From Oscillospiraceae bacterium (lineage in GTDB: Bacteria > Bacillota > Clostridia > Oscillospirales > Ruminococcaceae): a DNA stretch of 64,000 bases. Both the position numbers and the translations under genes were made by a program. This document shows, piece after piece, positions 43,344 through 56,884 of the stretch. The notes beneath the pieces are model-generated. The model was given only the letters and a program-made list of their open reading frames with translations. It was not told the DNA's origin and did not search any database. Numbering within the stretch: the stretch's first letter is position 1; each line of letters begins with the position of its first letter. The stretch spans positions 16,832 through 80,831 of the forward strand of contig JAFXZM010000004.1 in NCBI GenBank assembly GCA_017541275.1, given 5' to 3'.

Positions 43344-43372
43344 TTGCAAATTATAGGGAATTGTGGTATAAT
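43344..43372 (+). promoter_or_regulatory. strong sigma-70-type promoter with extended -10, upstream of the helicase operon
   Basis: TTGCAA-17 nt-TATAAT, with TGG immediately 5' of the -10 (TGnTATAAT). Lies in an AT-rich 400-bp spacer. Confidence 0.6.
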
Positions 43373-43437
43373 GTATAGTATATATTTCCGATCGAGAAAA
43401 AATATGTACACAGTTACGCCCCGCGGCCCGAAAGGAT

Positions 43438-46431
43438 GTGAAAAGCGCCATGGTGTTTTCCACCATTGTATCTGACAGTCAGAATCGTTACAGGATTGAA
43501 CGTGATTTTCATGCGGAAGCATTCTCCGATTCAGATCAGGAATCGGTATCCGAACTGTGCGGGCGTATCTGGAGAAGCACACCGCTGCTTGGTGAGTTCA
43601 TCCTGAGCAGCAGGGAACAGGACAGGGTCCTGTCGTCTGCCGCAGTCATACTGAAACAGATGATATGCATGCCGGCTGCACATCAGAGCCCTGCCAATGA
43701 GCGTATTCTGGCAATGGCAATGGTTTTGCTGACACAGGCACAGGACAACGACGAAAACGACAGCAAATTATGGGATTATCTGCTGACACAGCTTGGCTAT
43801 GATGATGCCGCTGCGAAAAAATGCTCAAAGCAGACCCTTCGGAATAAAGTGACTGAAATTCTCGACCATGTTTTTCAATATGAGGGAAAGTTTTATTCGG
43901 AGGACGGCCACCGATATTTCAATACGCTGCGGCTCCATGCGCTCGCACCGACACAGAGTGTTGAGCATCTGTACAACCTGCTGTATGATTTTTATAAAAC
44001 GAATTTGGAGTGCCAGTATACGGAAGGCGACAACAGCTACCGGATTTTTGTGCGGCAGATCTGCAAGCGCTGGCAAAACAAATCCGCGGACGATCAAACA
44101 GAATCGGATATGAAAACCCGTTCCGATTATCTGGCGGCCAGCTTTCGGGAGCTGTTTACGCAGCGGCCGGAATATACCGCAGCGCTTTGTGATGCGCTTG
44201 TTTACCGGATGGATGTGATGCTCCGCGGAAGCACAGATATCTTTGCAGAGGAAAACCGCTGGGATCAGCTCATGCTCGGCTGGTACCGCAGAAAAGCGGA
44301 GACAGAGCGGCAGCGCATGAAGCAATCCTCCGCACAGGCCAGAATCTCGCGCATTGTGACCGATTCCGCCAAAATCGCCCCGGCCTATCATTATAAGGAC
44401 GAGCAGCTATCACTGTTTCTGCCGCGCATACGTCTGCCGGAAATCACAGAGCGTCCGACGGCAGTTCTGCTGCAGGGCGGGCGTGTGATTGACAGCATGC
44501 AGCTATCGGTGTTCGGCAATGACCTTTGCCTCACGACCCGCGAAATACAGATTATTCTTTCCGGCCGGGCGCACATCGACTGGGACAGCCCGATGGACTT
44601 CCGGATTCTGCTTCAGTGCGGCGGCAGGCTGCTCTATGATTCCGGGCAGCAGCTATACCGTTCTTATCTTTTGTTCCGGGTCGACGGTGAAGAAACCAGA
44701 CGCATTCCGCAGGTTTCCGCAGCCATGTATCTGGTGTACGGCTGGAATTCCGAAATGATGTATGATGAAACGGAGGACGTCAATTATACATACGGCTCCG
44801 ATTTTCAGGTGTTTGAATTTATCCCGTCATCACTGCGGCTGCTTTCCGTAAACGGAAAGAATCTGCTGCAGAAAAAGGGACAGGGAATGCAGTGCATGAT
44901 ATACGGCGACAGAGTTCCGGATGCCAGTGTGACCGGCTTCGGAGAAACCGCACTGCTTTTCAGAAGCAGCCCGTATTTGTATGTTTCTGCGGATTCCGCG
45001 GAGCAGATGAAGCAGTATGTATGCGACATCAACGGCACAGCGCTGCCGCTGTATCAGGCGGCAAACGCAAAGACCGATGCAAGGATTCCGCTGCCGGCGG
45101 CACAGAATCAGATTGGCAGGGTCGCTGTCCGCAGCTTTTATGACGGCAGAATCATTTTCGAGCAGTTATATTCTGTTCTTCCGGATTTCACACACCGGTT
45201 TGAACCGGCGTATTATTATTCCGGACAGCTTTTCGGAAAAGTGCATATTTCAGCCATGAACCGGCAGAATACGATCTCGTTTGAGCTGAGCCGCGATCAG
45301 CATTCGGTTACGGTTCCGCTGACACCCGATATCGGGCTGACGCTTTCTGCACCGTGGATTCAGGCAGAGCTGAACGGAGAGGATGCCTTTTCCTTGCCAG
45401 CATATATCTGGAAGGATTTTTTTCAGCAGCATCCGTTTTTGCAGATTACAGCACCGAAATGGCTGGAGATTCACCTGATGCTGGGCGGTACGGAGCTGCC
45501 CCGTCAGCAGAACGGCTACGACATCCGGAGCGCCGTCCGTGCCCTATGCAGCAATGCCGCAGGCACACCGAAGACCTGTCCGCTGGGAATCCTGCTCAAA
45601 AAAAGCGGCGCTGCGAAGCCGGATCAGATTCTGTTGTCCAACCTTGCCCTGCACCCGTTTTTAACTGAATCGCCGGTCATTTGCCGCGACAGAACAATCT
45701 ACTGGGAGCCAAGCGGAAAGTATATCGGCCCCGCCTGTGATACCATCCGGGTGCTTCTGGAAAATGATGAAGGAACAGAACCGTGGGTTTATGTATGCGA
45801 TCCGAAAAAGTCGTTCATCATTGAAAAGGCTTTTCCCTGCAAAGAGGGCAGCTACCGCTATGAAATCAGAGCCGAACAGGCAAATGCATTACAGGCGCAA
45901 GCCGAGCAGACATTGCTTCAGGGGGAAATCATCATCCGCGATCCGGAGGAGCTGCGCTATGAAGGCGCCGTGATTTACCTGACAGCCGCGAAATTTGAAA
46001 CAAATAGCTGGCTTTCGAGCTGGGAGGCAAAGATTCCATTTGGCTGTGCGAGACTGGTCGATATTCAGTATGAAACGATCTCGGTTCCGCTGGAAGGCAA
46101 ACTGAAGGATTATCAGGATCCGGTTCCCTGCTTCAGCGCATTTTTGCAATTCCGCATCGCAAGGGTGCAAAAATGGAACGATTTTAATTCCGACCCGGAT
46201 AACACGGAATATACGCTGATTAACCCTGTTCTGTTCTGGCAGGTCACATCGGAAAGCGGTTTGGATTATCTGATTTTGCAGGGCAGGGACGGCCGGCGAA
46301 TCATGATGGAGGAATTCCGAAGCGGCTGCGTCAGCGTTGTGAACCGCAGCAGCGCACAGATACCCGGCCGCCGGCGAAAACGGGCAGACCGTTTTGAATT
46401 TCAGGTCGAGGCGGATGCAGATGTTGAATAA
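43438..46431 (+). CDS. large uncharacterised protein, first gene of the candidate defence operon (DruH-like by size and context)
   Basis: 997-aa ORF (alternative ATG at 43450). I found no P-loop, nuclease, methylase or TM motif. The stop is 11 nt before the helicase gene. Confidence 0.6.
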   Translation: MKSAMVFSTIVSDSQNRYRIERDFHAEAFSDSDQESVSELCGRIWRSTPLLGEFILSSREQDRVLSSAAVILKQMICMPAAHQSPANERILAMAMVLLTQAQDNDENDSKLWDYLLTQLGYDDAAAKKCSKQTLRNKVTEILDHVFQYEGKFYSEDGHRYFNTLRLHALAPTQSVEHLYNLLYDFYKTNLECQYTEGDNSYRIFVRQICKRWQNKSADDQTESDMKTRSDYLAASFRELFTQRPEYTAALCDALVYRMDVMLRGSTDIFAEENRWDQLMLGWYRRKAETERQRMKQSSAQARISRIVTDSAKIAPAYHYKDEQLSLFLPRIRLPEITERPTAVLLQGGRVIDSMQLSVFGNDLCLTTREIQIILSGRAHIDWDSPMDFRILLQCGGRLLYDSGQQLYRSYLLFRVDGEETRRIPQVSAAMYLVYGWNSEMMYDETEDVNYTYGSDFQVFEFIPSSLRLLSVNGKNLLQKKGQGMQCMIYGDRVPDASVTGFGETALLFRSSPYLYVSADSAEQMKQYVCDINGTALPLYQAANAKTDARIPLPAAQNQIGRVAVRSFYDGRIIFEQLYSVLPDFTHRFEPAYYYSGQLFGKVHISAMNRQNTISFELSRDQHSVTVPLTPDIGLTLSAPWIQAELNGEDAFSLPAYIWKDFFQQHPFLQITAPKWLEIHLMLGGTELPRQQNGYDIRSAVRALCSNAAGTPKTCPLGILLKKSGAAKPDQILLSNLALHPFLTESPVICRDRTIYWEPSGKYIGPACDTIRVLLENDEGTEPWVYVCDPKKSFIIEKAFPCKEGSYRYEIRAEQANALQAQAEQTLLQGEIIIRDPEELRYEGAVIYLTAAKFETNSWLSSWEAKIPFGCARLVDIQYETISVPLEGKLKDYQDPVPCFSAFLQFRIARVQKWNDFNSDPDNTEYTLINPVLFWQVTSESGLDYLILQGRDGRRIMMEEFRSGCVSVVNRSSAQIPGRRRKRADRFEFQVEADADVE

Positions 46432-46442
46432 AGGAGGAATGT

Positions 46443-49400: not shown

Positions 49401-51641
49401 CAGGCATTTGTGGATAAGGATATCAATGCGCTGAGCTGCTCAACAACATTTGAAATGGGCGTGGACGTCGGCAGCCTCGAAACCGTGTATATGCGCAATA
49501 TTCCGCCAAGCCCGGCCAATTATGTGCAGAGAGCAGGACGCGCGGGCCGTTCCAGACAGTCTGCGGCGTATGTTCTGACCTATGCAAAGCTCTCGTCGCA
49601 TGATATGACCTTCTACGGGGCGCCGGAAACGATCATATCCGGCAGCATTCAGGCTCCGGTCTTTTCGATTCAGAATGAAAAGGTGGTCAACCGCCATATT
49701 TTCGCAGTCGCACTCAGCAAATTCTTTGCGTTGCATGAGGAAATCTATGACAGCGACAATCAGTCGGCGCTGCTGAATCATGGCGGATATGAGGTGCTGA
49801 AGGAATACCTTGCGGCAAAGCCGGAGGATCTCCGGCAGCTTTTGATGCTTTCGGTTCCGGAGGAGCTGCACAGTCTGCTCGGCATACCGGATTTTGGCTG
49901 GACGGAAAAGCTGGTCGGAAAAGACGGTGTTCTGGAGATTGCCGTGCAGGAATTCCGCGAGCAGATTGCAGTGCTGGAAAATGAGATCAAGCGGTGCGAT
50001 AAGCTGAAGGACAGAGAGGGCGCCGCAGCCGCAGAACGGTATCTGAAGGCGTTTCGCTGTGCAGAGGAAGACGGACGCCATAAAAAGCGGCTGATTGATT
50101 TTCTGGTGCGCAATAATGTGCTTCCCAAATACGGCTTCCCTGTTGATACCGTAGAATTGCAGCCCGCAAATGCATTCCGGCTGGAAAGCCGCGACACCCT
50201 GCAGCTTGCCCGCGATTTACAGCTTGCAATCGCAGAATATGCGCCCGGAGCCGAGGTAATTGCCGACGGAAAGATGTACACAAGCCGGTATATCCGGAAA
50301 ATGCCGGGAAAGGACAACTCGGCCGCATGGGAAAAAGGGTATTACTGTGAGTGTCCGTCGTGTCAGGAACCGAATTTCTCAAAGCGGTACGATACCAAGC
50401 TGAGCGGGGCAAAGTGCATCTCCTGTCTCAAGCTGATCGCACCGAAATCATGGAAGCCGACACTGGAACCGCGGCGCGGATTCTGGACAGACGGCAGCGA
50501 AAAGGATGTTCCGCTGCGAAAGCCGGAACGGGAGTATAAAACCGCGGATTATTATATCGGTGATATGGAGCGGCGGCGCCTGATGCGGACACGCTTCCTC
50601 GTAAATGATCTGGAAATTGAAATGGAATCCACCGCGAATGATTCGCTTGCCGTGGTCGGCCTGACGGATTACTATGTCTGCGAAAGCTGCGGATATGCTT
50701 CCGATACAGATTTTTCATCCGATCATAAGACGATGCGCGGATTCAAGTGCTCCAGCAAAAAGGAAACCCACAACCGCTACCGGTTATCCCATACCTTTAA
50801 GACCTTTGTGGCGAAAATTAAATTCTGCATTCCGGCCGCACAGGACGAGCAGACGATGCTTTCCGTCATGTACGCACTGCTGGAAGGGCTTTCCAGAGAG
50901 CTGTCCATCGAGCGAACCGATCTGAAGGGCTGTCTGCACAGAGAACCGCTTGAGGGCTGTCAGCGTCCTGTGTTTGCGGTCATTCTGTACGATGCAGTTG
51001 CAGGCGGCGCGGGTCATGTCCGCCGCATGGTCACAGAGGATGCCGCAGTATTCCGGCGGGTTCTGAAGCGTGCAATCGCCGTAGCGGAAGGATGCAGCTG
51101 CGATCCGTCCTGCTATCAATGCCTGCGGAATTACTACAATTCGCAGATACACGATCTGCTTGACCGGCGGCTTGCAGCGGATTTTCTGAAGCAGTGGGTC
51201 GGAGAATACGTACCGAAAGCAGCCGCGTCTGTGCAGACGGCAGATGCAGATGAAATACAGGCTGCATCGGGAGCGGAAGCCGTTTCGCCCTGCAAAATCC
51301 GGTTTAAGAATAACGGCCGGAATTTGCGCAATGTCCCGGCTCAGCAGGTCTGGGATACCGTACTGGGCGACTGCGCCGAAGAAGACATCGGCATCGTGCA
51401 GCAGCTCCGCGAAATGCATCACGGAGCCGGCGGGAACCCGTATTATCAGGCGTATTTCGTTTTCCCGGAAGTATCAGACCGGAAATGCAATGCCGCACTG
51501 ATCTGGGAGAAGCAAAAGGTAATTTTCTTTGTGAGTGACCAGTTCGAGGATTATGAATATGCGCTGAAAAGCGGCTGGCACTGCTTCTGCACCGCAGATA
51601 ATCCCGATCTGCATCAGATGATTCAAATAATAGGAGGATAA
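46443..51641 (+). CDS. DEAH-box SF2 helicase with multiple zinc ribbons and a DUF1998-type C-terminal domain (DruE-like)
   Basis: AAGGAGG RBS. Motif I TGTGSGKT (aa 117-124), Ia YPMNALANDQ, II DEAH (aa 257-260), III TSAT, VI QRAGRAGR. CxxC clusters at aa ~477-586 and later. DUF1998-like EGCSCDPSCYQCLRNYYN. Confidence 0.75.
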   Translation: MERFDPIQASEQIKECFIDYITTSFRMADDTYAELLREELRREGSIARGPYLDVSGSYKTGASLTELMKSGEVSPLFQALEPIPEHDRELKLLRPLYLHQEAALKKANAGKNLVVTTGTGSGKTECFLIPVLNALLREREQGPLTDAVRAIIIYPMNALANDQMKRMRKLLQKYPEITFGIYNGNTRHTEADARRDYKTANGKDAEPYTNELISRERMQKTPPHILITNYSMLEYMMLRPKDDNVFSGAKLRYIILDEAHIYKGTTGIETAMLMRRLRARISTRDTVQFILTSATLGGRDADMEIVRFAKTLCEVDFAPSDIVRSESALPPMTGMETYPPELFVQIAHREKPVAEVLADFSVPDYAPDGDDAEKCYALLLHSAQFHALILNTAEPVSMNRLCADMHGMTPSQLRDFISVCTYAEKDHVSLIKARYHFFVRALEGAYVTLNHPQKLFLQRRSLLTNPDGSQQTAFEIAVCRDCGRMALVGRESDGFLHQVSRKSERDPNACEYYLIADDSFQTIDDGASDLSEDEEAAGEDFSVCACCGKLGTKADIRFGAFCGCEKPEYVTLKRVLRTESGAAKCPACGFGALRAFYLGSDAATAVLGTELFEQLPDTELLPQEKKAKAPEGAGFGLFKPKALLPKKITKPLTRQFLCFSDSRSEAAYFANYMEKSYQEFLRRRAILQVADALRAQGQSEISVTAFVSRLIRFFDEKKTFEIWRPDGHQDSDALHIESERNAWIAVLNEMFNARRGTSLTALGRLSFEYQPNQEYISGVAEKYGLTEQESKDLLNQIAMYAVYTGAVNAGRQLALNAAEREYIFFSEYEKKLVLQKMSGMPSTITGWAGRKRSSGTYYPNSRMQRLSNTLGMTPEEADTFLEQYWNGVFQPEGAEYILSAEDFHIRFLGNPEFHFFRCRKCGGVTPYNARNRCASVRCDGTLEPIDPDAYFRNNHYLRLYQNPQMSSLQIKEHTAQLSKNHQTRYQQAFVDKDINALSCSTTFEMGVDVGSLETVYMRNIPPSPANYVQRAGRAGRSRQSAAYVLTYAKLSSHDMTFYGAPETIISGSIQAPVFSIQNEKVVNRHIFAVALSKFFALHEEIYDSDNQSALLNHGGYEVLKEYLAAKPEDLRQLLMLSVPEELHSLLGIPDFGWTEKLVGKDGVLEIAVQEFREQIAVLENEIKRCDKLKDREGAAAAERYLKAFRCAEEDGRHKKRLIDFLVRNNVLPKYGFPVDTVELQPANAFRLESRDTLQLARDLQLAIAEYAPGAEVIADGKMYTSRYIRKMPGKDNSAAWEKGYYCECPSCQEPNFSKRYDTKLSGAKCISCLKLIAPKSWKPTLEPRRGFWTDGSEKDVPLRKPEREYKTADYYIGDMERRRLMRTRFLVNDLEIEMESTANDSLAVVGLTDYYVCESCGYASDTDFSSDHKTMRGFKCSSKKETHNRYRLSHTFKTFVAKIKFCIPAAQDEQTMLSVMYALLEGLSRELSIERTDLKGCLHREPLEGCQRPVFAVILYDAVAGGAGHVRRMVTEDAAVFRRVLKRAIAVAEGCSCDPSCYQCLRNYYNSQIHDLLDRRLAADFLKQWVGEYVPKAAASVQTADADEIQAASGAEAVSPCKIRFKNNGRNLRNVPAQQVWDTVLGDCAEEDIGIVQQLREMHHGAGGNPYYQAYFVFPEVSDRKCNAALIWEKQKVIFFVSDQFEDYEYALKSGWHCFCTADNPDLHQMIQIIGG

Positions 51642-53407: not shown

Positions 53408-53438
53408 TGCGGGCCGGAGATATCATCTCCGGCCCGCA
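53408..53438. terminator. perfect 13-bp hairpin between convergent operons
   Basis: TGCGGGCCGGAGA-TATCA-TCTCCGGCCCGCA. The T run (AAATGTTTTTTGC) is on the minus-strand side. Confidence 0.7.
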
Positions 53439-53524: not shown

Positions 53525-56500
53525 CTAAGGCTTCTCCAGCAGCTTCAGAATCCGGCTCACATCCAGAACAGTCAGCATATCGTCCTGATCCATGTCAGCG
53601 GCTTTCAGGCCGGTATCGGAAATCGCAGCATCCTCGTCCTCCGCAATGTATTTGCAAAGCAGCTCGGCGTCCTCGGCAGAGACCGCTCCGTCCTGATTGA
53701 CGTCGCCGTACAAAATGCTGTCACCGGCTTTCTCAAAGATAAACCAATCCACATTCATGACATATTCCCCGTCGCCCTTGAACAGCAGACAGAGATCGTG
53801 TACGCCTTCTGTCGGTGTAATCTCGGTTTCAAACTGCTGATAATTCATCCAGTCGCCGGTCGGCGGACAGGTGATGCTGCCGATCAGCGTTCCATCATAC
53901 GGATCGTCCAGACGCAGCTCGACCGTGCCCTCATCCATGCCGGACGCCGCCATCCGGAATTTCGCCGCACCGCCGCCGAAATCGACGTTAAAATAGATTG
54001 CAAAATCGTACTGATTGATGTACCCGAGACAGGTAATCTCATCGGACTGCTGCACGGGCTCCATAATGTCCATCAGATCGGCGCTTTCCGCCTGAATGGT
54101 TTTGAATGCATTGCGGTTCTTCAGCGGATCAGGCACGGTTGTGGTCGTTTCGGTTGTTGTCTCAGTCGTGACGCTTGTTGTGATTTTCGGAATTTCGGAA
54201 ATCGCGACAAACGGGATACCGTTTTTCTTGGCATATTCCTGCGCATAGGAGCCTGCAATGCCCTTGATCGTCAGCTTTGCGTCATTTTCAAACGCATTAT
54301 CGGAAATGTAAGTGACGCTCTCAGGGATAATGACCTCACGCAGGTATTCACAGTTTGCGAATGCCCGATTGCTGATGTATTCCACGCCCTCTTCCAGCGT
54401 GACATAACAAAGACTGGTGCATTGATTGAAAGCCTGAACCGCAATAGCTTTTACGCTGCCCGGAATCGTGACTGCGGGAAATCCGCATCCCTGAAACGCG
54501 CAATCGTCAATGAATGTCAAGCTGTCCGGAAAATGCGGCTCATTGATACGGGAGCGCTCAAACGCATCTTTCCCGATATATGTTAAAGTATTCGGCATGA
54601 CTACATTATAGGGTCCCCAGTTTTGCGAATCATATGAGAACGCAGCATTGCCGATTTCCGTGACCCCCTCCGGAATCACAACTGTACCCTCGCAGCGTCT
54701 TCCGTCAATCACCACATTGTTTTCAATCACGAGCAGGATTTCGGGATTCTGCGCCTTATCCCACGCTGTTCCGGCGAATGCATTTTCTCCGATTTCCGTC
54801 AAACTGTCCGGGAGATTGATAACCGCAAGTTTTTCACATCCGTAAAACGCCTCCGCACCGATGCTGATTACACTGTCCGGAATGGTAATCTCGGTTATGC
54901 TTAAGTCACCGGAAAATGCATTATCGCCGATGATTTTTACGCCGTCCGGAATGGTGATTTCAGGCGTCCATTCCAGTCCGTTCGCCGCAGATCCGGCGAT
55001 ATTGACAACACCGTCCGGAATGACAAGCGGTTCCGTGGAGAATCTGCCGTTCGGTGTCTCGAATAAAACATGATTTTCAATCACATACGGATTTTCCGAA
55101 CTTTTTGCATCCTCCCATGGTGTTATTCCAAATGGACCGCTGCCGAATTTTGTCATGCTGTTCTCGATCGTGACAGAAGTGAGACTTGGGCACTGGCCAA
55201 ATGCAAAATCGCCGACGAACTCTACGGTTTTCGGAATCGTGATCGCGGTCAGCGCTCTGCAATAGGAAAATGCACCGGCGCCGATGATTTTCACATTTTT
55301 CGGAATGGTCACGCCTTCCAGCTTCAGGCATTCTGAAAAGGCATGGTCGCCGATTTCCGTCAGGCTGTCCGGAAGCGGAGCAGAGGTCAGACCGTTGCAT
55401 TTATAAAACGCCTCCTCGCCGATATACTCCACGCCCTCCTCAATGGCGGCGGTTTTCATGGCGTAGCATCCGCTGAACGCCTTTTTCCCGATGCTTTTCA
55501 CGGTGCCGGGAATTGTGAGCTTTTCCATGTGACAATCGCTGAACAGACCCTCCGGAATGCTTGTCATGCTTTTCGGAATCGTCACGCCGTCCCAGAGCAT
55601 ACAGTCTGCAAACGCATATTCGCCGATTTCAACCGCGCTTTCCGGGATTGTAACTCGGTTCAGGTTTTGGCAGTGATTGAATGCATTTGCGCCAATCTTC
55701 GTTACACTGTCCGGAATTGAAACGCTGTTCAGCTTTGTGCACCACAGGAATGCATTTTTACCGATCTCTGTCACGCCGTCCGGAATGGTAACGGAGGTCA
55801 GCTTGTCCTGCCGTGCAAACGCATTGATGCCGATTACGGTCACGCCGTCCGGAATGACAACATCGCCTTCACATTTGCCGGCGTCGATCAGAACATGGTT
55901 CACAATCACCATGCCCCCGTCCGTCTGCTGTGCAGCAAGCCACGGCGTTTCCCTGAACGCATCCTTATCAATGCCGGCTGCACTCCCCAGAATCGTGACA
56001 TCGGTCAGGTTCTCGCAGTACACAAAAGCTCTCTCGCTGATACTTGTCACGCTTTTCGGAATTGTAACGGAAGTGAGGCTTGTACAGCGTTGAAATGCCT
56101 CCCAGCCGATGCTTGTCACGCTCTCCGGAATTGTCACGGAGGTGAGGCTGCTGCAGGATGCAAACATACATTGTCCAATGCTTGTCACACTGTTCGGAAT
56201 CGTTACAGAAGCAAGATTATCGCAGTCACTAAATGCATAATCACCGATGTTTGTCACATTGTCCGGAATCGTCACGGACGCAAGGCTTTTGCATTGTCTG
56301 AACGCATACTCCCCGAAACTTGTCACACTGCTTGGAATTGTAACAGAGGCAAGGTTTTCACATCCAAAGAACGTGTAGTCTGCGATGCTTGTCACGCCCT
56401 CCGGAATTTTGATTTCGGTCAGGCTTTTGCAACCGAAAAAAGCCGCCGCCCCAATGCTCGTTACACTGTCCGGAATATTGATTTCGGCCAGATTTGTACA

Positions 56501-56884
56501 GTTGTAAAACGCATACGCGCCGATGCTTGTCACGGTATCCGGGAGCGTGACGGAGATAATATTGCTTTGGATTTCTCCGCCGTCGTTCTTGAAGAGATTA
56601 TCGGCAATGGAGGTTACACCCTCCGAAACAACGACCCTTTTGATGTTTTCATTCCACGAAAACGGGCTGGAATAATGAATATCAAAATTTCTCATCGGTC
56701 CTGTGCCGGTGATTGTCAGCGTGCCCTCATCGTCCAGCGTCCAGCGGTGATCCGGCCCCAGAAGCCCCTGCTCCGCCGCATTGGCGGTCAGCACGGCCTC
56801 CGGCAGCAGTTCCGGCGCCAGCGGCACGCTCACGAGGCACATGCCCGCGGCCGTCAGCAGGGAGAGCAGCTTTTTCAGTTTCAT
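53525..56884 (-). CDS. secreted BspA-type leucine-rich-repeat protein with CBM6-like module and C-terminal dockerin
   Basis: AGGAGG RBS. Signal peptide. More than 25 repeats of (V/I)TIPxSVTSIGxxAFxxCxxL. CBM6-like block (TIQAES...TGDWMNYQ...NVDWFIF). Dockerin loops GDVNQDGAVSAED and DMDQDDMLTVLD. Confidence 0.85.
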   Translation of the reverse strand: MKLKKLLSLLTAAGMCLVSVPLAPELLPEAVLTANAAEQGLLGPDHRWTLDDEGTLTITGTGPMRNFDIHYSSPFSWNENIKRVVVSEGVTSIADNLFKNDGGEIQSNIISVTLPDTVTSIGAYAFYNCTNLAEINIPDSVTSIGAAAFFGCKSLTEIKIPEGVTSIADYTFFGCENLASVTIPSSVTSFGEYAFRQCKSLASVTIPDNVTNIGDYAFSDCDNLASVTIPNSVTSIGQCMFASCSSLTSVTIPESVTSIGWEAFQRCTSLTSVTIPKSVTSISERAFVYCENLTDVTILGSAAGIDKDAFRETPWLAAQQTDGGMVIVNHVLIDAGKCEGDVVIPDGVTVIGINAFARQDKLTSVTIPDGVTEIGKNAFLWCTKLNSVSIPDSVTKIGANAFNHCQNLNRVTIPESAVEIGEYAFADCMLWDGVTIPKSMTSIPEGLFSDCHMEKLTIPGTVKSIGKKAFSGCYAMKTAAIEEGVEYIGEEAFYKCNGLTSAPLPDSLTEIGDHAFSECLKLEGVTIPKNVKIIGAGAFSYCRALTAITIPKTVEFVGDFAFGQCPSLTSVTIENSMTKFGSGPFGITPWEDAKSSENPYVIENHVLFETPNGRFSTEPLVIPDGVVNIAGSAANGLEWTPEITIPDGVKIIGDNAFSGDLSITEITIPDSVISIGAEAFYGCEKLAVINLPDSLTEIGENAFAGTAWDKAQNPEILLVIENNVVIDGRRCEGTVVIPEGVTEIGNAAFSYDSQNWGPYNVVMPNTLTYIGKDAFERSRINEPHFPDSLTFIDDCAFQGCGFPAVTIPGSVKAIAVQAFNQCTSLCYVTLEEGVEYISNRAFANCEYLREVIIPESVTYISDNAFENDAKLTIKGIAGSYAQEYAKKNGIPFVAISEIPKITTSVTTETTTETTTTVPDPLKNRNAFKTIQAESADLMDIMEPVQQSDEITCLGYINQYDFAIYFNVDFGGGAAKFRMAASGMDEGTVELRLDDPYDGTLIGSITCPPTGDWMNYQQFETEITPTEGVHDLCLLFKGDGEYVMNVDWFIFEKAGDSILYGDVNQDGAVSAEDAELLCKYIAEDEDAAISDTGLKAADMDQDDMLTVLDVSRILKLLEKP

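Follow-up and report, generated by a model that had tools for sequence, protein, structure and literature searches.

In this study, we describe a three-gene operon within a 64,000-nucleotide stretch of DNA from an Oscillospiraceae bacterium (the window, by which we mean this whole stretch), in which the gene for a large unannotated protein (gene 1) is followed by that of a DruE-type helicase and by a third gene (gene 3) joining a NERD nuclease domain to a superfamily 1 (SF1) helicase. The three genes form a tightly coupled operon, and we take the locus to be a variant of Druantia type III (Table 1). A sequence-only reading had presented gene 1 as a long, uninterrupted open reading frame (ORF) at the head of an operon, with the helicase gene 11 nt downstream, and reading the sequence again confirms this: counted from its GTG, the ORF runs for 997 codons without interruption. 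Translation probably begins at the ATG at 43450 instead, giving a predicted protein of 993 aa (113.8 kDa, pI 5.4). This start is preferred over the GTG because the closest full-length homologue (P0002, 79% identity) begins exactly at the aligned position, and because a Shine-Dalgarno-like AAAGGA (43431-43436) lies 13 nt from the ATG and merely 1 nt from the GTG. Alignment with 21 homologues shows a conserved N-terminus, starting at about residue 5. The public gene call of the product (P0001, 920 aa) begins 77 codons past the real N-terminus, omitting 43438-43668, and the database entry is thus without the conserved first helices. The spacer between gene 1 and the helicase gene reads TAA-AGGAGG-AATGT-ATG, in which AGGAGG is the ribosome-binding site of the helicase gene, while gene 3 begins 4 nt after the helicase gene and has its own GGAGGA site. 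Judging by these short spacers and their ribosome-binding sites, all three genes are translationally coupled.

Table 1. Features of the operon and its borders (positions in the window).
Feature	Coordinates	Strand	Basis
Candidate promoter, TTGCAA-17 nt-TATAAT with extended -10 TG, 5' of gene 1	43344..43372	+	Consensus scan, 10/12 matches with TG
Gene 1, DruE-associated accessory protein	43438..46431	+	Uninterrupted ORF; 582 relatives; conserved synteny with DruE
Predicted N-terminal all-alpha domain, about residues 1-305	43438..44352	+	AlphaFold2, full protein and domain alone
Predicted all-beta region, residues 316-997, about 6-7 Ig/Fn3-like sandwich domains	44383..46428	+	DSSP of the AlphaFold2 model; Foldseek
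11-nt spacer with AGGAGG ribosome-binding site of the helicase gene	46432..46442	+	Sequence reading
DruE-type YprA/MrfA-family SF2 helicase, 1732 aa	46443..51641	+	Pfam, PADLOC, PDB sequences, motifs
Gene 3, NERD nuclease domain and UvrD-like SF1 helicase, 577 aa	51646..53379	+	PADLOC, Pfam, motifs
14-bp GC-rich hairpin between convergent gene 3 and LRR-protein gene	53408..53438	.	Terminator scan

The helicase carries the Pfam domains DEAD, Helicase_C and MZB, keeps the motifs GSGKT and DEAH as well as the four-cysteine MZB cluster, and matches the PADLOC models DruE1 (3.4e-177, 590 bits) and DruE3 (1e-164, 549 bits). By comparison, the score of a genuine type III DruE on the model of its own type is 2245 bits. 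Since the type I and type III scores of the window helicase are nearly equal and both far below this value, it represents a separate DruE branch. No PLD match in Pfam, no HxK(x)4D motif and no other recognisable nuclease domain was found in it, and DrmA models match it weakly (1e-16). Its best match among PDB sequences is chain 9tu7_Y (3.7e-80), a 2108-aa DEAD/DEAH box helicase with a generic deposited name that, going by its length, is probably the type III DruE of E. coli. Together with the DruE proteins of two of the other loci examined, L001 and L024 (1732-1740 aa for the three), the window DruE extends by some 130-150 aa past MZB (about residues 1574-1732 in the window, 51162-51641). This C-terminal tail is absent from two-gene versions of the system (1587-1618 aa) and may be a docking domain for gene 3; it has no Pfam match, and the C-terminal 140 aa find nothing among PDB sequences. 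At L013 and L014, where gene 3 is also present, the DruE alignments stop at window residues 1588-1591.

Gene 3 matches the PADLOC model RTasNERD-Hel (2.2e-55) and Pfam UvrD_C_2, without a match among PDB sequences. The PD-(D/E)xK residues of its NERD domain are intact (D54, E68-A-K70), as are the Walker A motif GMAGTGKT and the DEGQ of the helicase part. Homologues occur at L001, L013, L014, L023, L024 and L027, which amounts to about 6 of 12 evaluable loci. As such, the core of the system consists of two genes, to which gene 3 is a frequent addition.

The gene 1 product itself found nothing in Pfam, PADLOC, NCBIfam or PHROGs, whether searched as a single sequence or as a profile, although it should be noted that the Pfam copy lacked the DruH-specific models PF27205 and PF27201, and that genuine DruH also gave no match there. 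Among PDB sequences, the best match reached only E 0.13. A motif scan showed no Walker A, HKD or CxxC motif, there is no transmembrane-like segment (maximum Kyte-Doolittle 19-residue mean of 1.3), and no signal peptide was seen. At this level, the sequence-only reading was right in describing a protein with no recognisable domain, transmembrane segment or signal sequence. Its label of orphan does not stand up to a sensitive profile search, a check that the same reading had proposed: a word-indexed search returned just 25 relatives, whereas an exhaustive hidden Markov model search with a 22-sequence profile returned 582 cluster representatives at E<=1e-3, 319 of which at E<=1e-30, making gene 1 a member of a large superfamily. 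That reading had also named a housekeeping match or frameshifted homologues as grounds for abandoning it. Neither was found, and homologues of 976-1033 aa align collinearly across 89-99% of the length of gene 1.

The ten gene 1-family loci found in GTDB species representatives are all from Clostridia (Muriventricola, Acetatifactor, Flintibacter, Oscillospiraceae and Lachnospiraceae). The closest plasmid-borne DruE is encoded on a Clostridium butyricum megaplasmid, where the gene upstream encodes a 1069-aa protein annotated as hypothetical. This protein seeds a sister family of more than 374 clusters, some with 850-950 member sequences, of proteins of about 1070 aa encoded 5' of compact DruE genes. 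Aligned by hhalign, the profiles of the two families reach a probability of 99.8% (E 6.8e-28, 815 columns), so that on sequence grounds they are clearly homologous and form one large, wholly unannotated superfamily. The C. butyricum protein has an N-terminal extension (residues 4-163; L006 2795-3290) that matches phrog_3989 of unknown function (E 7e-16), and the consensus of this sister-family extension, read by eye, contains two similar segments of about 85 aa. Plasmid DruE loci from cyanobacteria, Meiothermus and haloarchaea were considered as a bridge to gene 1 and rejected, as they are not of the two-gene, partner-plus-DruE type; an annotated DruA is present in two of them, and in those from cyanobacteria the upstream genes are different and number two or three.

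In the superfamily loci examined, the pairing with DruE is maintained. All 15 gene 1-family loci examined, which represent 13 distinct places, have a DruE homologue downstream in the same orientation, and the order of partner and then DruE recurs in 3/3 sister-family loci examined, including one (L026) with a truncated helicase of 1192 aa without an MZB domain. At L016, L017 and L021, one to three genes are inserted between the two. The inserted genes include one for a BspA-type leucine-rich repeat (LRR) protein at L017 (4902-6023) and L021 (8791-9651), and BspA-type LRR_5 proteins also adjoin the module at L001 (19525-19962), at L024 (13867-14691) and in the window, where a 1119-aa LRR_5/CBM6/dockerin protein is encoded on the opposite strand (53525-56884, -). 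LRR_5 proteins are abundant in gut Clostridia, so this association possibly arises by chance, and a real association is possible too. The two partners do not evolve at the same pace: where the cognate DruE is 46-69% identical to that of the window, the gene 1 homologue is 23-36% identical, and the partner thus diverges about twice as fast as DruE.

Full-length prediction of the gene 1 product by AlphaFold2 (AF2) from a 22-sequence alignment gave a mean predicted local distance difference test score (pLDDT) of 84.7 and a predicted TM-score (pTM) of 0.53. In this model, helices occupy about residues 12-304 and are followed by beta structure over residues 316-991, where only helices of 4-10 residues occur; by its strand pattern in DSSP, the beta part is predicted to form about 6-7 sandwich domains. 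When the full model was searched with Foldseek against the PDB, in a set that runs to releases of 2026-04-08 and contains no DruH structure, it matched only multi-domain chains of immunoglobulin (Ig) and fibronectin type III (Fn3) repeats, with probabilities of up to 0.99 and very low TM-scores. These include IL-23R, IL-3R, titin, contactin, complement MG domains and an S-layer protein. Predicted alone, the N-domain reaches a pLDDT of 86.5 and a pTM of 0.86, and has no significant Foldseek match; the best ones, in the PDB (terpene synthases, E 0.08, TM 0.19) and in BFVD (E 0.14), were treated as noise. The structural check suggested by the sequence-only reading therefore yielded an Ig/Fn3-like array for the beta region, and no fold match for the N-domain. 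Likewise, its statement that the function cannot be read from the sequence is true of the sequence alone, while the predicted structure does reveal a helical N-domain and an Ig-like array.

The N-domain is the best-conserved part of the protein. Conservation peaks at residues 151-200, with the motif YFNTLRLHALAP...FY..NL..QY, of which YFNTLRLHALAP corresponds to residues 160-171 and includes H167, conserved in 97%. The beta array is the more variable part, with a windowed conservation of 0.15-0.26 through most of residues 316-997. DruH, the accessory protein of type III Druantia, is likewise reported to diverge faster than DruE, a pattern read there as the signature of a sensor (PMC13192584), and to show positive selection in its Ig-like domains. 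The fast divergence of the gene 1 family, together with the concentration of its variability in the beta array, suggests a sensor in the same way.

Further indications come from fusions, which were counted by eye from match coordinates in the best 150 of the 582 representatives. About 37 of these have N-terminal extensions of 220-800 aa. Eight N-terminally extended relatives were scanned with Pfam, and five of them (P0039, P0102, P0110, P0149 and P0166) carry two to three helix-hairpin-helix modules of the RNA polymerase alpha C-terminal domain (alpha-CTD), in one case also sigma-70 region 4. An alpha-CTD-bearing relative is encoded at L024 (2315-6691), in a three-gene operon like that of the window. 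These modules may be plain DNA-binding additions, or else decoys that possibly attract phage factors directed against RNA polymerase. At the other end of the protein, a UvrD-type SF1 helicase is fused to the C-terminus in 7 of the best 150. Through both kinds of fusion, the gene 1 family is linked with DNA, as well as with an SF1 helicase like that of gene 3. Two UvrD-fusion loci, L023 (4180-15811) and L027 (7669-19419), represent a four-gene variant in which the downstream helicase is divided over two proteins, one of about 1065 aa with DEAD-like motifs and one of about 615 aa with MZB, and a NERD-UvrD gene comes next. BLAST gave no link between the 1065-aa protein and DruE. A Vsr/Dcm/HpaII restriction-modification module precedes this variant in both loci.

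The surroundings of these loci are defence islands or mobile elements, with a decayed Wadjet system and an integrase, HpaII restriction-modification with Vsr, a MobA relaxase or a VapE-like primase as neighbours, and in one case an island with AAA_13 and DUF2726 helicase genes. The Wadjet system at L001 (2746-6588) looks decayed in that JetC is present only as fragments of 140 and 133 aa among intact-looking JetA, JetB and JetD. Just upstream of two different versions of the system lie the ribosomal genes rplM-rpsI (L001 580-1428, L027 2313-3152), at L001 with the integrase and Wadjet genes between them and the system, which suggests a shared insertion hotspot for islands in Oscillospiraceae. 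At one Oscillospiraceae locus (L016 2062-5226), a gene for a 1054-aa protein with RCC1 repeats and BRCT directly precedes the partner gene. In the window, the GC content is 0.47-0.53 over the locus compared to about 0.58 in its flanks, and the flanking genes are ordinary by Pfam (an EamA transporter, an ECF S-component, a SpoIIE phosphatase and the LRR_5/CBM6/dockerin protein). The promoter-like sequence 5' of gene 1 is a candidate only, since such sites are no commoner in the region than in shuffles, and the hairpin downstream of gene 3 is likely a bidirectional terminator that closes the operon.

What, then, is the role of gene 1? Our preferred reading, which we hold with somewhat better than even confidence, is that it belongs to an anti-phage system of the Druantia type III kind in gut Clostridia, where its product serves a compact DruE without a nuclease as dedicated accessory subunit. 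This product would do the job of DruH while belonging to a superfamily that is different or has diverged beyond detection. The earlier suggestion of a large partner protein with a sensing or effector role in a helicase-based defence system is thereby supported, given the DruE-type helicase, the conserved pairing and the defence-related or mobile surroundings. By analogy, the gene 1 product is most likely a sensor or loader subunit. Its likeness to DruH of type III-A (the STY4851/ECs_5259 or YjiT family, found in E. coli and P. aeruginosa) starts with gene position, as both are single, large, unannotated accessory proteins encoded directly upstream of druE. Both are furthermore acidic, monomer-sized and diverge much faster than DruE, and the gene 1 product is some 120 aa shorter than the roughly 1100 aa of DruH. 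According to cryo-EM preprints from 2026, DruH consists of an N-terminal helical domain, six Ig-like domains and, at its C-terminus, an alpha-helical domain. In one of them, the N-domain is globular, Ig1-6 and a C-terminal domain follow, and a pocket for single-stranded DNA (ssDNA) and ATP lies between Ig5 and the C-terminal domain, while another distinguishes ten domains, several of which are Fn3- or Ig-like. The AF2 model of the gene 1 product likewise has a predicted Ig array behind its N-terminal helical domain, a resemblance to the published description and not a direct superposition.

The operon anatomy, the families to which the helicase and gene 3 belong, the synteny, the fast divergence, the predicted fold and the fusions are observed or computed, and the mechanism that we propose around them takes each biochemical step by analogy from type III Druantia. 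The variable Ig/Fn3-like array of the acidic, cytoplasmic, 114-kDa gene 1 product would sense the infection by a cue that is a protein or a DNA intermediate of the phage, and would also dock on DruE, while the conserved N-terminal helical domain would engage and possibly process DNA. The protein could thus recruit or license DruE at the ssDNA-dsDNA junctions of phage replication intermediates, which DruE would then unwind 3'-to-5'. Because the window DruE is without a nuclease domain, we assign the nuclease role to gene 3, and the co-transcribed NERD-nuclease/SF1-helicase would destroy the DNA. In two-gene versions, the N-domain of the partner itself might do so, a speculative step drawn from the nuclease activities reported for DruH.

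Several observations weigh against this interpretation. Unlike DruH, the gene 1 product is predicted to end in beta domains, without the C-terminal alpha-helical domain. In DruH it is this domain that touches the stalk of DruE, forms half of the ssDNA/ATP pocket and holds the pocket residues R1031, H1062, R1064 and K1067, so that coupling of the gene 1 product to DruE would not simply be DruH-like. The published roles of DruH moreover disagree with each other, ranging from an ssDNA binder inhibited by ATP, through a 3'-5' exonuclease and a dimer-dependent nickase, to a scaffold. Profile-profile comparison by hhalign of the 69-sequence gene 1 family with a 23-sequence DruH alignment gave a probability of 0.2% (P 0.28), the two N-domains gave P 0.061 and the sister family against DruH again gave 0.2% (P 0.29), none of which is significant. 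Few polar residues of the N-domain are conserved family-wide (E21, H167, D198, R211, D259 and K286), a catalytic site there is putative only, and with a pTM of 0.53 the arrangement of the domains in the model is uncertain.

One may ask whether gene 1 is not simply DruH. A true member of the STY4851/ECs_5259 (YjiT) family that has diverged undetectably, and has lost or replaced its C-terminal helical domain, would make the system type III-B, in which a compact PLD-less DruE is described as paired with DruH. Gene position and order are as in DruH, size and the predicted layout of N-terminal helices and Ig array are similar to it, and the PADLOC DruH models are themselves divergent, with several matching canonical DruH in its N-terminal 250 aa only. 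Non-significant as they are, the hhalign alignments are long and collinear and start from the same N-terminal offset (48-603 against 47-581, and for the N-domain 24-305 against 7-284), which leaves room for very deep homology. The searches point the other way. Of the 31 family members scanned, none finds a match among the 11 PADLOC DruH3 models (22 alignment members at E<=1, with the window protein among them also at E<=10, and 9 distant members at E<=0.01), while genuine DruH proteins (P. luteola, Azotobacter plasmids), used as a positive control, match 11/11 with E values from 4e-10 down to 0. The NCBIfam model STY4851/ECs_5259 has no match at E<=1 in the window protein, the only member scanned. 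Among 49 domain-wise hhalign pairs, the best (P 0.0011) is not significant after correction, and single DruH sequences gave nothing significant. Nor did hhalign give a significant alignment onto which the DruH pocket residues (Y670, N672 and Y733 in addition to those named above) or those of its N-domain (R22, K28, E64 and E220) could be mapped. With the window DruE about equally far from DruE3 and DruE1, and with both sequence-family membership and a C-terminal helical domain lacking, we do not file gene 1 as a DruH member, and regard undetected DruH identity as possible though doubtful. To a similar degree, we would put forward tentatively that DruE recruited Ig-array partners at least two times independently. 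The Clostridia superfamily, comprising hundreds of clusters, would then be unrelated to DruH, with a new alpha-helical N-domain fold, and would define a distinct Druantia type with its nuclease outsourced to the NERD/SF1 helicase. Its input modules would be swappable, being none, two to three alpha-CTD copies, or other N-terminal extensions such as the phrog_3989-matching one, and the alpha-CTD copies might be built-in decoys for RNA polymerase-targeting phage factors.

The gene 1 product could also act mainly as an effector, in which the N-terminal helical domain is a new nuclease that degrades phage DNA once DruE has unwound it, with the Ig array as a scaffold and not a sensor. Two-gene versions have no recognisable nuclease in either protein, the well-conserved N-domain keeps H167, D198, D259, K286 and E21, and one preprint reports a 3'-5' exonuclease mapped to the N-terminal helical domain of DruH, another a dimer-dependent nickase. 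We nonetheless find this unlikely, as no nuclease fold or motif match was obtained, few acidic residues are conserved family-wide, the window co-encodes a proper NERD nuclease, and divergence at twice the rate of DruE suits a sensor better than an enzyme. Still less probable, to the point of being very improbable, is a role outside immunity, with gene 1 as the lesion- or structure-recognition factor of a DNA-repair or replication-restart machine related to MrfAB. DruE does come from the YprA/MrfA family, which was founded on a protein that repairs mitomycin C damage, and the helicase matches YprA in the PDB (6znp, E 5e-21). Compared to its 590 bits on DruE models, it scores just 134 bits on the MrfA-like NCBIfam model TIGR03817 (cut-off 874), no MrfB-type exonuclease partner is present, the partner evolves fast, and the distribution is patchy, in islands with restriction-modification, Wadjet, integrases and relaxases and a GC content below that of the flanks. 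Finally, the likeness of the Ig/Fn3 array to S-layer proteins, adhesins and receptors in Foldseek, and the dockerin/LRR surface protein encoded nearby, would fit a surface or secreted Ig-domain adhesin that merely adjoins the helicase. We rejected this reading and consider it effectively refuted, because there is no signal peptide or transmembrane segment and the fusion partners in relatives are a cytoplasmic UvrD helicase and RNA polymerase alpha-CTD domains; the translational coupling to DruE and the invariant synteny argue against it as well.

The locus offers a natural variant in which the helicase and a partner with N-terminal helices and an Ig array are kept, DruH's C-terminal domain and the nuclease of the helicase are absent, and a NERD/SF1 helicase is added. 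Comparison with DruH would reveal which features are essential for coupling to DruE, and where nuclease activity must sit. This is useful and timely for a field that disputes the function of DruH, whose roles partly conflict across five papers and preprints from 2025-2026, and in which the type III mechanism of Druantia is only now emerging, although it introduces no new principle. In the literature searched, we found no DruH-like partner in Firmicutes and no operon of DruE with NERD/SF1 described, and whether Bell et al. cover Clostridia loci under III-B could not be checked. PADLOC, NCBIfam and Pfam would report such Clostridia loci as a lone DruE or as nothing, and Druantia-like immunity in gut Firmicutes is therefore probably under-counted.

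Among the Druantia types, the locus agrees with type III in its DruE-type helicase with MZB and its one large co-directional gene directly upstream of druE. Type I is accompanied by DruA-D and type II by DruM/F/G, while type IV is defined by DruF/DruL (PMC8565338). Scanned with PADLOC, gene 1, gene 3 and five of their neighbours show no match to DruA-D, DruF, DruG, DruL or DruM, which sets the locus apart from these three types. DruH-carrying type III-A is a system of Proteobacteria, and that of gene 1 one of Clostridia. Unlike the type III-A DruE of about 2100 aa with its two C-terminal PLD-like nuclease domains, the DruE of the window has 1732 aa and no PLD, which is consistent with a compact, III-B-like form. 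In type III-B, such a compact DruE without PLD domains comes with DruH (Bell et al. 2025, PMC12458937). Compared by published description and not by sequence, the two systems share a two-gene core and a compact, nuclease-less DruE, and differ in that the window operon adds a NERD/SF1-helicase gene and has a partner that matches 0/11 DruH3 models.

Other systems with related helicases share individual parts with the operon. The MrfAB/YprAB repair system is distinguished by the missed TIGR03817 cut-off and by the lack of an exonuclease-family neighbour in Pfam and PADLOC scans. In DISARM, a YprA-like helicase is split between DrmA and DrmB, with DUF1998/MZB, which resembles the split helicase of the UvrD-fusion variants L023 and L027. 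Unlike DISARM, the window has a single DruE-type polypeptide and neither DrmC nor a methyltransferase. ARMADA II combines a YprA-like helicase with a subsequent SF1 (GajB/UvrD-like) helicase that has an N-terminal toxin or nuclease domain (ArmD), and TALON pairs a YprA-like helicase with a NERD endonuclease (Bell et al. 2025, PMC12458937). The BrxHII-like helicase, PglX methyltransferase, TPR-CSD protein and TBP gene of these systems are absent from the window, whose helicase scores as DruE and not as ARMADA, and both systems are without an Ig-array partner. Gene 3 nevertheless unites the ideas behind ARMADA II and TALON, by carrying a NERD domain and a UvrD-like helicase in one protein.

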